Shown one piece after another: positions 5,265 through 16,541 of a stretch of 53,577 nucleotides of DNA. The notes beneath the pieces are model-generated. The model saw only the letters and a program-made list of their open reading frames with translations. It was not told the DNA's origin and did not search any database. The stretch's first letter is position 1, and every line of letters begins with the position of its first letter. The DNA is taken from IMG/VR virus record IMGVR_UViG_2541047877_000006; one strand, given 5' to 3'. The position numbers were made by a program, and so were the translations under genes. Origin of the DNA: a virus (lineage: Duplodnaviria; Heunggongvirae; Uroviricota; Caudoviricetes).

Positions 5265-6197
5265 TCATTGGCAGCAAACAATCTCTTTATATGCTTCTTC
5301 TACCATGTCGAATACTTCCGGCCTGTAATAAAAAAATTCATTGCTACCATCAAATTTTACAGTAAAGTTAATTTTATAATTGCTGAAATATTTATGCATC
5401 GTGCTTTCTAATTCTTGAACTTTTCCTGTTGGTCCTTCCCACGTCTTCACGATATGCAAATCATGGATTCTAACACCTGCTTTATGCGCGCTATTTAATA
5501 CCATATTTCTTCGCCTGTTCTCACTAACGCTCACGCCAATTTTCATCATCGTTGGCACTTCCAGATCATCAACCATGATGTAAATTTTTCCATACTCATG
5601 ACTAAGGAAACCGCTTTTCGCGCATTTCGGGCAGCCTTGCCCCTTTTTAAGGTTACTGGGTATAGCAGACCACTCATGACCGCAGACATTACAGCGGCAT
5701 AATACTTTTGTTGCGTTATTAACAATTTCGCCTATAACTTCAACATCAGGATTAACCTTCGCAATAGTCGCGATCTGTTCTTCGTGTGTTAAGGTTCTGA
5801 TTTGTGCTAGTTTTAAAGATTTACACTTCGGGCAGCCGTACCCACTTTTAAGGTTGTAAGGACTAACAGACCACTCATGATCACAAACTTTGCAGCGGCA
5901 CGGGACTTTATCCCTGGCGTTATTAACTTCCCCCAATACTTCAATATTTGGGTTAACTTTGGCTATATCTGCAATATGTTCTTCGTGTGTTAATGTTTTT
6001 TTTAACCTTGCGCATTTAGGGCAACCGTTCCCGTGTTTAAGGTTGTTAGGAGTAGCAGACCACTCATGATCACAAACTTTGCAGCGGCATGATACTTTTG
6101 TTGTGCTGCAGGTTACTTCCTCCAACACTTCAATATTTGGGTTAACTTTCTCAATAGCTGCAATTTGCTCTTCATGCGTTAACTTGCGTCTACCCAT
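5265..6197 (-). CDS. triple zinc-ribbon repeat protein with C-terminal T5orf172 (GIY-YIG-like) domain
   Basis: Three ~45-aa repeats LTHEE.IA.I.KVNP.IEV...CRCKVC.HEWS...GCPKC; C-terminal KIYIMV...KIGVS...ENRRR. Confidence 0.6.
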   Translation of the reverse strand: MGRRKLTHEEQIAAIEKVNPNIEVLEEVTCSTTKVSCRCKVCDHEWSATPNNLKHGNGCPKCARLKKTLTHEEHIADIAKVNPNIEVLGEVNNARDKVPCRCKVCDHEWSVSPYNLKSGYGCPKCKSLKLAQIRTLTHEEQIATIAKVNPDVEVIGEIVNNATKVLCRCNVCGHEWSAIPSNLKKGQGCPKCAKSGFLSHEYGKIYIMVDDLEVPTMMKIGVSVSENRRRNMVLNSAHKAGVRIHDLHIVKTWEGPTGKVQELESTMHKYFSNYKINFTVKFDGSNEFFYYRPEVFDMVEEAYKEIVCCQ

Positions 6198-12053: not shown

Positions 12054-12375
12054 ATTACATAAGGCCTATGATAGCGAAACAAATAAGCTATCACTATTTA
12101 TTGAGTTCGAACGCCGGATCGTGTGTGTACCGTGGGCGCGTCGCTTTAATGATGCAGCAGGGCGGCGACAGTTCGCGTTAGACATGTTGTTGCGCGGTTG
12201 CGGCCTTATGCGCCCGCTATCTGATTTAAAACGGATGATGCCGGGATCGTTCGGTCAGATTGATGAAATAGAAATAAGCCCGGAAGAACTGAAACGTGAG
12301 CGTGATTTATTCCTTTCAAGCGAAGGAAACCCGTTTAATTCAGAAACTGAAATGAAATGGCATCATCCACTATAA
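12043..12375 (+). CDS. hypothetical protein (110 aa)
   Basis: ORF; no domain recognised. Confidence 0.45.
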   Translation: MKIKLHKAYDSETNKLSLFIEFERRIVCVPWARRFNDAAGRRQFALDMLLRGCGLMRPLSDLKRMMPGSFGQIDEIEISPEELKRERDLFLSSEGNPFNSETEMKWHHPL

Positions 12376-12386
12376 GGGTAAATATT

Positions 12387-13007
12387 ATGAACAATATCAA
12401 AACGGCTTATTCACTCGGCAGCGAAGGCATGTTAATTACTCGCTACACAGAGGACGCGAGCTTTCACGAAGTGGTAACTAAGGATTATCACGAAGTTTTA
12501 AAAGATATGGAAGCAGGAGTGTATGACAGTGACTTAAATCTGGCGCTACAGATTGTTGATATTATGATGGATGCATCAATCCGCGATTACGTGTCTTTAA
12601 GCATGGAAGAAAAAACATCGGTAGCGCGTTATGTGTTCTGCCTCACTTTCGTAAGACGCATGGAGGAGGAATTCGGACGCGCACCAGTGCCGGAAGATGT
12701 TGATCCGCTCGCGTTCGGAAGTGCTGTTATTTTCCCGTTGAACAAGGATCGGCTTGGCAGTGTTTCACTGCATTCTATGCGCGCCCTGATGAAAAAGGTC
12801 TTTGAGGTTAAGATGTTGCAGAAATTTATTGAGGAAGGACACGAAGAAGTGAACGTTAAGGCGTTTATTCCGGTGCTTTACGGAAATTTTGTTGGCGATG
12901 ATATGCGCGCTAATGAATTAGGCGTACAGGCGGCTATAGCTACGCTTAACGAAGCAATGAAAAGTGCACAGCCTATTCATGAACAGGAAAAACGTGTACT
13001 GCATTAA
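12387..13007 (+). CDS. hypothetical protein (206 aa)
   Basis: ORF from internal ATG 12387; no domain recognised. Confidence 0.45.
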   Translation: MNNIKTAYSLGSEGMLITRYTEDASFHEVVTKDYHEVLKDMEAGVYDSDLNLALQIVDIMMDASIRDYVSLSMEEKTSVARYVFCLTFVRRMEEEFGRAPVPEDVDPLAFGSAVIFPLNKDRLGSVSLHSMRALMKKVFEVKMLQKFIEEGHEEVNVKAFIPVLYGNFVGDDMRANELGVQAAIATLNEAMKSAQPIHEQEKRVLH

Positions 13008-13812: not shown

Positions 13813-14040
13813 ATGATGCGTGCAATTATTGACTTCATTATTGGATGGTTATTTTGTTCTTTTTTCGTATTCTCATGTATAGCTACGGTTTTTATTGGAA
13901 TTTTATGTGGTGTGTCGTTTGTTACATGGGAGCCACCAGAAATTCCATCACCTGATGATGCGCTTTATATATTAAGGGTTATTATTGCTGTTAGTGTATT
14001 TGTTGGGTTCTTTTTCGCTGATTCTACTGATGGTTTATAA
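13813..14040 (+). CDS. small membrane protein (75 aa)
   Basis: Two hydrophobic segments; GAGGA SD before ATG 13813. Confidence 0.4.
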   Translation: MMRAIIDFIIGWLFCSFFVFSCIATVFIGILCGVSFVTWEPPEIPSPDDALYILRVIIAVSVFVGFFFADSTDGL

Positions 14041-14041
14041 A

Positions 14042-14275
14042 ATGGCTTTATTTAACCTGTCAGAGCCGCAATTTAACGCCGTAAAGACTGCCGCCCGCGC
14101 CGCGCTTTCGGTCTGCAAAGCGGAAGTAGAAAAGAACGGCTACAGCGATAAAGCCACGCGGCTGATATTAGATAAGCATTATCGCAAGGTCGCCCCGCTA
14201 ATCAGTATTGAGCGTTTTGTGTGGTTGGTGGGGTATCTGAATAACCGCTGGGGAACAGATCAGGATTATTTCTAA
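14042..14275 (+). CDS. hypothetical protein (77 aa)
   Basis: ORF MALFNLSEPQFNAV...; no domain recognised. Confidence 0.4.
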   Translation: MALFNLSEPQFNAVKTAARAALSVCKAEVEKNGYSDKATRLILDKHYRKVAPLISIERFVWLVGYLNNRWGTDQDYF

Positions 14276-14284
14276 GGGGGAGTA

Positions 14285-14824
14285 ATGAAAAATGATTACG
14301 GCGGCAGCCATACGCCGAAAGAAATAAAGGACTTATGGCAAACGCCAAAACCCGTTTTTAGAGGAATGGATCGAGAATTCGAGTTCGTCGCGGATGTGGC
14401 GGCAAACAAGGCAAACGCATTAATACCGCGATATATAACCGAAGAAATGGACACGCTCCATTATCCGTGGGGAGCGGTGGCGATGCCTGGTGAGTATGTC
14501 TGGATGAATCCGCCATATTCTAATCCGGGGCCATTCGTTGATAAAGCGGCGCTTGAACACAGCCGAAATCATATCGGATGCGTAATGTTATTGCCCGCTG
14601 ACATTTCTGTTAGCTGGTTTATGAACGGCGTGGAGACGGCAAACGAATGCCGATTAATCACGCGCGGGCGGCTGGCGTTTATCAATGCTGCAACAGGGAA
14701 ACCAGTAAGCGGGAACAATAAGGGGAGCTTGTTCCTGATCTGGCATCCACGATGCAGACATGAATGTATTTTCACGCAGATAACACGTAAAGAGCTATAT
14801 GCAAGAGGTGCAGAAAATGAATAA
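14285..14824 (+). CDS. phage Dam-like DNA N6-adenine methyltransferase
   Basis: WQTP motif, catalytic NPPY (VWMNPPYSN), LLPADISVSWF; typical phage Dam-family layout. Confidence 0.8.
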   Translation: MKNDYGGSHTPKEIKDLWQTPKPVFRGMDREFEFVADVAANKANALIPRYITEEMDTLHYPWGAVAMPGEYVWMNPPYSNPGPFVDKAALEHSRNHIGCVMLLPADISVSWFMNGVETANECRLITRGRLAFINAATGKPVSGNNKGSLFLIWHPRCRHECIFTQITRKELYARGAENE

Positions 14825-15137
14825 AGCGGCTGAATTGCTGAGACTTGCGGCTGAAACTATCGAGGCAAGAGGGGAGCAAAACGGATACGATCGAAAAGAA
14901 GAAAAATCAGCGCCAAAAATAGCGGCTATTTTCAACGCTAAGATGAATGCGAATTTAACCCCACTTGATGTATGGGATCTAATGATTTGCCTCAAGGAAG
15001 CGCGTTTAGGGGCTATTCTCGCTAATGGAACTGATCCGCTCGACACTCTTATAGACCTTATTGCTTATAACGCGCTTAAGGCCGAACAGATATTAGCGTA
15101 TCGGGAGGAAGAGCTAAATGAAGATGGTGGCAATTGA
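14817..15137 (+). CDS. hypothetical protein (106 aa)
   Basis: ORF with GAGGTG SD; between the two methyltransferase-like genes. Confidence 0.45.
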   Translation: MNKAAELLRLAAETIEARGEQNGYDRKEEKSAPKIAAIFNAKMNANLTPLDVWDLMICLKEARLGAILANGTDPLDTLIDLIAYNALKAEQILAYREEELNEDGGN

Positions 15138-15621
15138 CAGGTTATTAGCCTGCGTTTATGTCGCCGTTTTCGTTATCATCAATCTTATTGTTAACCACTG
15201 TGGCACGTGGGTAATTCCGATCACCACGGTAGCCGCCGTGTGTGTCAATATGATGATTCGTGATTTTCTGTTATATGACGGCGGCCTTAAATGGTCGGCT
15301 ACAACATGCGCCGCCGCTGGCGCAATCACGGTGCTGATAAATTACGACGCCGGAATGGTGGCGATCGCGTCATTCGTCGCGGTTGTTTCCGGTGCGCTTA
15401 TTTCTGGCGGCGTTTACCGGGTTTTACCTGGTGATTTCGATTCTAAACGCTGGCCTGCAAATATAGCGTCCGCCATTGGCGATGCGTTAATTTTCCCAAC
15501 GCTATCGTTTATGGCATTCATGCCGGAAATATCAGCTATGCAATTCATCTCAAAAATGGCGGCGGTAACGGTGATCACTATCATCATGCGCCGCTACTTT
15601 ACGTTCGAGGGTAGGAAATGA
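15118..15621 (+). CDS. integral membrane protein, possibly YhhQ/VUT-family transporter-like
   Basis: 167 aa, about five hydrophobic helices; family assignment is from memory and tentative. Confidence 0.35.
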   Translation: MKMVAIDRLLACVYVAVFVIINLIVNHCGTWVIPITTVAAVCVNMMIRDFLLYDGGLKWSATTCAAAGAITVLINYDAGMVAIASFVAVVSGALISGGVYRVLPGDFDSKRWPANIASAIGDALIFPTLSFMAFMPEISAMQFISKMAAVTVITIIMRRYFTFEGRK

Positions 15622-16382
15622 GTGGGCTTAGAAATTGGGTGGTGTGGTCGCTGTACGACGGCAGCGGATACGCCGTTAAAGATTGGGCCGACGCTGGTTA
15701 TAAATGCTATTGCTTCAACTATGATGGCGCTAATCACGGCGATTATGAAGGCGTCAAAATCATTCATCCGAACATTGAGTATATCAACGTATGGATTGAC
15801 AGCCATTTCCTGGTAATGTTCTCCCCTGAATTGTCTGTTTATCCAGATCCTGACATTATCCTGGGCTTTCCTCCGTGCGACGATCTTGCGGTGTCCGGCG
15901 CTCGCTGGTTTGCTGATAAGCGGAAAAAAGATCCTTACTTCCAGCAGAAGGCGGCATACAACGCAAAACTGGTAGAAACGCTTGCTGATATGTACCACGT
16001 CCCGTGGATGGTGGAAAATCCGGTAGGTGCGCTGTCAACGTTATGGCGCAAACCTGATTTTATCTTCAACCCGTGCGCTTACGGTGGCTACCTGCCTGAA
16101 GACGACAAACACCCTGCTTTCCCTGAATACATAGCTGCCCGCGACGCATACACGAAGAAAACTTGTATCTGGTGCGGGAATGGATTTAAGCAGCCGCTAT
16201 TCCGGTCTGTACCTATGCCGGATGAATGGGAAGACAGCAAACAGCACGCGAAGTTAGGAGGAAAGTCGAAACGCACTAAGATGATCCGCTCACTAACGCC
16301 GCGCGGCTTTGCCCGTGCTGTATTCTTGGCTAACGACCGGGCCATCACTCGTACTACGCTTAACCGCATTTTACCGGACTAA
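15618..16382 (+). CDS. compact DNA cytosine-5 methyltransferase-like protein
   Basis: Motif-I-like LYDGSGY, motif-IV-like GFPPCDD (Cys nucleophile), motif-VI ENPVG; only 254 aa, atypical PCDD. Confidence 0.45.
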   Translation: MSGLRNWVVWSLYDGSGYAVKDWADAGYKCYCFNYDGANHGDYEGVKIIHPNIEYINVWIDSHFLVMFSPELSVYPDPDIILGFPPCDDLAVSGARWFADKRKKDPYFQQKAAYNAKLVETLADMYHVPWMVENPVGALSTLWRKPDFIFNPCAYGGYLPEDDKHPAFPEYIAARDAYTKKTCIWCGNGFKQPLFRSVPMPDEWEDSKQHAKLGGKSKRTKMIRSLTPRGFARAVFLANDRAITRTTLNRILPD

Positions 16383-16404
16383 AGTTTACAAAATGGCATC
16401 ATTG

Positions 16405-16420
16405 TGTGATGCGGATCACA
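16405..16420. promoter_or_regulatory. CRP-box-like palindrome
   Basis: TGTGATGCGGATCACA matches TGTGA-N6-TCACA; flanked by inverted TACAAAATGG copies. Confidence 0.4.
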
Positions 16421-16541
16421 TAATGGCGCTTTTTGTCTTGTTTGGGGGTATCCATTTTGTATACTTCAAGCAAACAAAATGCTCTTTAAAAATCCGGCAG
16501 CGCTGAAATGCGTAGAAATCACCTGAAAAGGAGAGAGCATT

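Follow-up and report, generated by a model that had tools for sequence, protein, structure and literature searches.

Predicted orphan methylases and a VUT/YhhQ-family transporter without DpdA in the early region of an mEp021-group temperate coliphage

Introduction

The Escherichia coli transporter YhhQ, a member of the VUT/QPTR family (PF02592, COG1738), imports preQ0/preQ1 (PMC6884629, PMC11130926). Phage homologues of YhhQ are known, for example in CAjan, PEAT2 and T1-like phages; they do not correlate strictly with the groups of DpdA, the enzyme that inserts 7-deazaguanine into DNA (PMC6884629, PMC11130926). Two-gene VUT-DpdA modules belong to the 'DpdA only' group of Hutinet et al. (2019), who also suggested a queuosine-boosting role for YhhQ homologues in phages that lack DpdA (PMC6884629). 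The DpdA of CAjan has been validated genetically (PMC7544227), and all viruses known to carry 7-deazaguanine encode a DpdA of their own (PMC10516641). Here, a viral DNA of 53,577 nucleotides (IMG/VR record IMGVR_UViG_2541047877_000006; the window) was analysed, with a focus on positions 14285-16382, where a predicted Dam methyltransferase, a DUF6378 protein, a membrane protein and a compact protein resembling C5-cytosine methyltransferases (MTases) are encoded in succession. An initial annotation had taken these genes for an anti-restriction module, which is plausible. The reading favoured here, with a probability of about 0.6, is an orphan-methylase anti-restriction operon that also holds a VUT transporter gene, inherited from a VUT-DpdA module and kept for a DpdA-independent role.

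Results

The membrane protein had at first been described as having about five helices and likened, with low confidence, to YhhQ/VUT transporters. Kyte-Doolittle hydropathy gives 5-6 hydrophobic helices, six transmembrane (TM) segments are listed for the counterpart in the mEp021 record, and the protein matches phrog_4899 (E 8.6e-46). No Pfam family is matched at E up to 0.1, and so there is no direct match to Vut_1 (PF02592); close homologues number only 12 in a set of 5.8 billion proteins. A profile built from seven close homologues and searched against 1.84 billion representative proteins (E up to 1e-3) retrieved 256 relatives, and 63 of the 66 that were sampled match Vut_1 (best E 2.5e-15), one sampled relative additionally bearing a QueF domain. 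Among isolated phages, tblastn finds proteins of 31-36% identity (E 1e-9 to 1e-22), several of which are deposited as 'VUT family protein', the match to the annotated VUT proteins having an E of about 1e-21; identity to the VUT genes of T1-like phages and PEAT2 is 34-36%. The profile returned only chance-level Tim22 matches from sequences in the PDB. Through these intermediate homologues, and not by a direct Pfam match, the protein is identified as a divergent, short VUT/YhhQ (QPTR)-family transporter, and the low-confidence likeness holds up. It is polytopic like the rest of the family and about as short as other phage QPTR copies (150-170 amino acids (aa)), but differs from them in lacking a direct Pfam match, in having no accompanying DpdA or preQ0-synthesis genes, and in being flanked by the DUF6378 and C5-MTase-like genes. 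E. coli YhhQ is 221 aa long.

Linkage of VUT to DpdA was counted in the 80 IMG/VR loci whose VUT proteins are closest to that of the window. A DpdA-like gene is present in 74 of these loci and directly adjacent in 60 of those 74. In the T1-like phages Opt-719, LHE71 and RCIP0319 and in Pectobacterium phage PEAT2, VUT is followed at once by a gene for a protein of 245-275 aa, which in PEAT2 is annotated as queuine tRNA-ribosyltransferase. The four adjacent proteins are mutually homologous and have no TGT match in Pfam; their alignment matches the validated CAjan DpdA in hhalign with a probability of 93.6% (E 2e-7, 151 columns), over a stretch that spans the DxGAFS and (A/C)DS(T/S) motifs. Membership of the VUT-adjacent protein of T1-like phages in the family of the 254-aa window protein was considered and rejected, given a BLASTP E of 0.99 and the DpdA-like character of that protein. 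Since 74 of the 80 loci carry a DpdA-like gene, the phage clade of the window VUT is tightly tied to a DpdA-like 7-deazaguanine DNA-insertion enzyme.

The window itself yielded no such enzyme. Searches by tblastn with the four short DpdAs found nothing (best E 0.13), nor did a hidden Markov model of 76 DpdA sequences run with --max on all open stretches of at least 40 aa in the six frames of the window (best E 0.42), nor phmmer and tblastn of the window with CAjan DpdA, FolE, QueD, QueC and QueE. Pfam and PHROG scans of the non-structural window open reading frames (ORFs; 140 aa or more for Pfam) revealed no TGT or Que domains, and mEp021, phage MagusPhagus and a more distant relative (L003) are likewise without DpdA. 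The CAjan-type 7-deazaguanine accessory genes (FolE, QueD, QueC and QueE) are optional in 'DpdA only' phages. Without DpdA or any preQ0-pathway gene, an imported precursor cannot reach the DNA by the known route here. The initial suggestion that the transporter hints at import of a precursor for DNA modification therefore fits the DpdA-linked relatives but not the window phage. The locus shares with the VUT-DpdA modules its transporter clade, its early-gene surroundings and a transporter gene tightly coupled to the adjoining one, but the defining enzyme is missing.

On a neighbour-joining tree of 151 VUT proteins, the copies without DpdA (window/mEp021, L003, P0133 and P0138) form one clade, whose sister group consists of DpdA-linked VUTs from T1-like enterobacterial phages; this topology suggests that DpdA was lost once and that the transporter was then kept for a long time. 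The locus of P0133, the next-closest VUT (contig L092, 5001-7258), is a second case of a transporter beside a methylase without DpdA: after its VUT come two proteins of about 140 aa with no family assignment, which resemble each other on visual inspection, and then an N6/N4 DNA methyltransferase.

Selection on the four genes was estimated from ratios of nonsynonymous to synonymous substitution (dN/dS; pairwise Nei-Gojobori), with mEp021, MagusPhagus and two prophages as comparators. Values range from 0.025 to 0.21 over all four genes, which are therefore real genes and not chance ORFs; the membrane protein has the lowest (0.025-0.063), followed by Dam (0.05-0.09), the 254-aa protein (0.05-0.12) and the DUF6378 protein (0.11-0.21). 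All isolates and 21 IMG/VR contigs have an uninterrupted VUT frame, and conservation of the protein extends to L003 (52% identity) and P0133 (44%). The strength of this selection, along with retention of the gene in prophage STEC308, where the MTase-like gene is gone, indicates that the window VUT is functional without DpdA. One natural transporter knock-out exists: in IMG/VR contig L101 (3657-3986; protein P0129), a deletion has fused the N-terminus of Dam to the C-terminal half of VUT and removed the DUF6378 gene.

Coupling of the transporter to the methylase-like gene was assessed in 80 IMG/VR loci carrying the latter, with VUT sought within 4 kb. The order Dam-DUF6378-VUT-MTase is found in all 21 of the closest loci (82% identity or more), VUT in none of the remaining 59, and DpdA in none of the 80. 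General co-inheritance of the two genes is rejected by the 0/59 count. Conversely, a distant mini-MTase lies near VUT in only two of the 80 VUT loci, both of which also carry DpdA, and in the T1-like phage BlueShadow the methylase-like gene stands alone. In STEC308 the VUT gene is followed by an HNH endonuclease gene, and in prophage E21845 an HNH gene separates VUT from a different, frameshifted MTase-like allele with an FPDCT motif. In these two E. coli prophages (L090, 5011-5538; L091, 5018-5545) the HNH endonuclease gene encodes 175 aa and is inserted directly after VUT, and the junction looks like a site of homing-endonuclease-driven turnover. The VUT-methylase link is confined to the mEp021-like lineage, and a functional tie between the two is probably not present.

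The first gene had been called a clear Dam-family adenine methyltransferase, and its scores lie far over the curated cut-offs of both Pfam PF05869 (E 1.9e-51, 174.5 bits, cut-off 28.1) and the NCBIfam equivalog TIGR01712 (140.9 bits, cut-off 97.05). The product also matches phrog_111 and carries NPPY at residues 75-78, in accordance with the (D/N)PPY pattern. By homology, it is a phage Dam-type DNA N6-adenine methyltransferase of the orphan family (PF05869/TIGR01712) to which the T1 and Stx-phage VT-2 enzymes belong. It shares with these a full-length profile match, the catalytic motif, a small size and an early/nin location in a temperate phage, and no notable difference was found.

The 254-aa product of the last gene matches phrog_757 (E 1.1e-86), and its family comprises 2372 homologue clusters (E up to 1e-3) from T1-like, rV5-like and many other phages. 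The motifs LYDGSGY (residues 12-18), GFPPCDD (83-89) and ENPVG (133-137), previously noted as signs of a small C5-MTase-like protein, stand as motif I (YDGSG), motif IV (FPPC87-D88) and motif VI (E133-N-P), but PCQ, the earlier reference for motif IV, does not: the family consensus is PCTD, and PCD(D/N/H) is restricted to the mEp021-like clade. Across 33 aligned family members drawn from the 2372 clusters, G15-S16 of (F/Y)DGSG, P86-C87, E133-N134-P135 and R144 are invariant (33/33). An AlphaFold2 (AF2) model with a predicted local distance difference test score (pLDDT) of 87.7 contains seven strands, and Foldseek ranks the catalytic domains of DNMT3A/3B first (E 3e-7), with Dnmt2 and CmoX also among the structural neighbours. 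PF00145 is matched by 12 of the 33 members at E up to 1 (best 1.3e-6), and the family profile reaches DNMT3B in the PDB at a weak E of 0.28, with motifs I-IV aligned and PCND as motif IV of DNMT3B. The prediction of a C5-MTase fold with intact catalytic Cys and Glu is solid, and we infer that the protein produces 5-methylcytosine in DNA.

Like DNA C5-MTases (PF00145; nearest, the DNMT3A/3B catalytic domains), the window protein is predicted to have a seven-stranded class-I MTase fold with motif I (F/Y)xGxG, a Pro-Cys in motif IV and Glu-Asn-x in motif VI, and its apparently short recognition region and its motif IV of the PC(N/T/D)D type recall DNMT3. It differs in that its family is only 227-260 aa long, the window protein lies below Pfam detection, ENP replaces ENV, PCT/PCD replaces PCQ, Asn takes the place of the usual Glu at the end of strand 2, and motif X is not recognisable; SLTPRGFA resembles motif IX by eye, and there is no clear GN(S/A)V motif X. 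The C5-carboxymethyltransferase CmoX (PDB 8YF3, PMC12783734) has SPPC where the window protein has FPPC, and its cofactor-binding Arg of motif X cannot be mapped in the window protein; no neighbours of the CmoX type (CmoA, ligase or ParB) were seen, with CmoA sought in the annotations of the relatives' records. A literature search found no experimental report on the mini-MTase family, nor on its target motif or transferred group.

Across the window and loci L096-L175, all 23 VUT-linked copies have N39 together with PCD(D/N/H), whereas VUT-less copies have D39 with PCT, as if an Asp had moved between two nearly invariant positions (39 and 88). This signature may reflect plain ancestry, as the VUT-linked copies are one clade. 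A second mini C5-MTase-like family is represented by a 208-aa protein (VLIACEYSG ... HPPCTDLAVSG ... ENP) that has motifs IV and VI in common with the window protein; it is encoded on IMG/VR contig L043 (3258-5686), 600 nt beyond the RusA, DpdA-like and VUT genes of a nin region of lambdoid type.

The gene after Dam, initially left as hypothetical, encodes a member of DUF6378 (PF19905, E 3.4e-9). Its homologues begin with MNKAAE or MSKAAE, which corresponds to the second ATG of the ORF, and a start at 14817 is more likely than one at 14799. Within the same phage group, short (101-112 aa) and long (161-170 aa) alleles occur, the long ones with a highly variable C-terminal tail of about 55 extra aa that the window copy lacks. 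The conserved core of about 100 residues is predicted to be helical, and the AF2 model has four helices at a pLDDT of only 57, too poor for a fold search. A profile search of PDB sequences gave no match, and the literature yielded no experimental or informative report on DUF6378. The protein is best described as a conserved, predicted all-helical protein.

The ORF check returned four overlapping ORFs on the plus strand with the same coordinates as in the initial annotation (Table 1). The overlaps are, in gene order, ATGAATAA, 20 nt and ATGA, and the four genes are probably translationally coupled. A terminator-like hairpin marks the end of the block, and TERM_4 is annotated in mEp021 at the equivalent position.

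Table 1. Features of the four-gene block and its 3' boundary in the window.
Feature	Position	Strand	Length and supporting evidence
Dam (predicted)	14285-14824	+	179 aa; PF05869, TIGR01712, phrog_111, PADLOC orphan-MTase models
DUF6378 protein	14817-15137 (mechanical ORF from 14799)	+	106 aa (112 aa mechanical); PF19905
VUT/YhhQ (QPTR)-family membrane protein (predicted)	15118-15621	+	167 aa, 5-6 TM; phrog_4899, intermediates to PF02592
Compact orphan C5-cytosine-methyltransferase-like protein	15618-16382	+	254 aa; phrog_757; motifs I, IV, VI
Terminator-like hairpin with T-run	16399-16435	+	consensus scan and sequence; 17 nt past the last stop codon

In megablast, the DNA shows 85-92% identity with temperate coliphages of the mEp021 group ('mEpimmI') and with phage MagusPhagus. 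A part of the E. coli N25 chromosome matches the region at 100% identity, and 35 of 5426 complete E. coli genomes contain the region. Given this identity and the presence in E. coli chromosomes, the window is a temperate phage or prophage of the mEp021 group, which has already been described (PMC11893012). In relatives of this group the four-gene set lies between the ipe gene and NinF/NinG/RusA/Q. PADLOC matched none of the four proteins to anything beyond generic (orphan-)methyltransferase models.

Directly 5' of Dam, positions 14043-14275 encode a homologue of mEp021 ipe ('inducer of pleiotropic effects', phrog_303), for which the mechanical ORF call reaches back to a TTG at 13985. Directly past the block terminator, at 16478-16520, a boxA-like TGCTCTTTAAAAA is followed by a small GCGC-TGAAAT-GCGT hairpin. 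The position of this element agrees with that of the mEp021 nutR2 site, reported downstream of a putative cytosine methyltransferase (PMC11893012).

Two further genes lie elsewhere in the window on the minus strand. The 310-aa protein at 5265-6197, located between replication genes, combines three treble-clef zinc fingers of the DUF4379 type with CapR homology domains and, at its C-terminus, a weak T5orf172/MUG113 (GIY-YIG-like) match; a nuclease or a moron with a link to defence is conceivable. The 219-aa protein at 37264-37923 matches the type VI secretion VasI domain (PF11319, E 1.2e-15) and is encoded within the tail-gene region, on the opposite strand.

Discussion

No component of the locus falls outside known families, and the phage group has been published. 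The favoured reading takes the region as the distal end of the early (nin-like) operon of an mEp021-group temperate coliphage that occurs as a prophage in some E. coli. Dam and the C5-MTase-like protein would be orphan methylases expressed from this N-antiterminated operon, and both would probably modify phage DNA during lytic growth, at adenine N6 and most likely at cytosine C5; family membership and gene position suggest that such methylation would blunt host restriction. The tree and the absence searches point to a loss of DpdA in the lineage, after which 7-deazaguanine would no longer enter the DNA by the known route and the transporter would have been retained under strong purifying selection. 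The weakest step is the role of the transporter, which would probably still import preQ0/preQ1-type bases for a DpdA-independent use. Such bases are its most likely substrates because characterised family members import them (PMC11130926). The imported base would most plausibly feed the host Tgt/queuosine-tRNA pathway during infection, or else serve another use.

Several points weigh against this reading. The neighbour-joining tree of VUT proteins carries no support values. E. coli already possesses YhhQ and de novo preQ1 synthesis, and the benefit of an additional importer in the absence of DpdA is not evident. DNA modification in CAjan did not change measurably when yhhQ was deleted (PMC7544227). 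The 254-aa protein itself has no match in Pfam or NCBIfam, its motifs IX and X could not be mapped, and an hhalign comparison of the family with E. coli Dcm brought only motif IV into alignment. The VUT-linked clade also differs at two nearly invariant positions, D39N and T88D, the second beside the catalytic Cys, and these changes could mean altered chemistry instead of plain methylation.

A rival view is that the 254-aa protein is not a DNA 5-methylcytosine MTase but acts on RNA or tRNA like Dnmt2, uses another cofactor such as host carboxy-SAM, or is an altered DNA-binding protein. Its very small size, the lack of a canonical target-recognition domain, the missing Pfam and NCBIfam matches, the unmapped motifs IX and X, the Asn in place of the usual acidic residue at the end of strand 2, and Dnmt2 and CmoX as structural neighbours are in line with this view, which is nevertheless unlikely in light of the invariance of Cys87, Glu133-Asn134 and G-x-G in the 33 aligned members and the position of the gene among DNA-directed genes (Dam, NinG and RusA). 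Another is that VUT and the variant enzyme work as a pair, in which a compound taken up by the transporter, or a cofactor made from it, is placed on pyrimidine C5 via Cys87/Glu133 to give a non-methyl DNA modification, much as CmoX uses carboxy-SAM. The genes overlap (ATGA) and are kept together out to L003 at 52-65% protein identity, the MTase-like gene occupies the place that DpdA has in T1-like phages, and the N39/PCD signature separates the 23 VUT-linked copies from those without VUT. That signature is possibly a mere clade marker, however; VUT is near none of the 59 other family members, STEC308 retains VUT but not the enzyme, and in E21845 an HNH insertion is followed by a frameshifted, different allele. 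Known VUT substrates, moreover, are 7-deazapurine bases, and no chemistry is known that would connect these with a C5-MTase fold; FPPC stands in place of SPPC, the hallmark of CmoX, and no CmoA or ligase gene was seen, so that little probability can be given to such a pair. There is an even slighter chance that the DpdA-less VUT and the N39/PCD mini-enzyme of the mEp021 lineage form a new two-component DNA-modification route by which an imported base or cofactor analogue, and not the methyl group of S-adenosylmethionine (SAM), ends up on phage DNA.

Phage DNA might instead receive 7-deazaguanine after all, with VUT supplying the base and an insertion enzyme that either is provided in trans by the host or another prophage or is a DpdA so divergent that it escapes detection. 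DpdA linkage is overwhelming in the VUT clade, the very divergent DpdA3 and DpdA4 subfamilies were recognised only recently (PMC10516641), and several window ORFs have no family match (231-908 and 12357-13007, for example). This is very unlikely all the same, as the DpdA profile at maximum sensitivity gave nothing better than E 0.42 in six frames, tblastn and phmmer with five DpdAs were negative, and the Pfam scans (ORFs of 140 aa or more) contain no TGT domain. E. coli K-12, on which these phages grow, is not known to carry dpdA, and the viruses in which 7-deazaguanine is known each encode the insertion enzyme themselves (PMC10516641). Finally, VUT could be a decaying, functionless relic of a VUT-DpdA module, as the absence of DpdA and the deletion in L101/P0129 that fuses Dam to the C-terminal half of VUT would allow. 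This is extremely improbable: the dN/dS of VUT, the lowest of the four genes, rejects a dead relic, and the intact frame in all isolates and 21 IMG/VR contigs and the conservation to 52% (L003) and 44% (P0133) identity also speak against decay.

An orphan-methylase operon with a retained VUT transporter thus stays the favoured reading. DNA modifications decide the survival of phages against restriction and CRISPR defences and have in the past been a source of enzymes and sequencing tools. The locus draws attention to a large family of mini C5-MTase-like proteins, which comprises 2372 sequence clusters or more. The unusual part of the locus is a predicted queuosine-precursor transporter that has been parted from DpdA and yet is under very strong selection, in a phage group whose prevalence in the human gut has been reported. 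It would offer a clean test of whether phage VUT/QPTR proteins have a role beyond DNA modification, such as the manipulation of host queuosine-tRNA.

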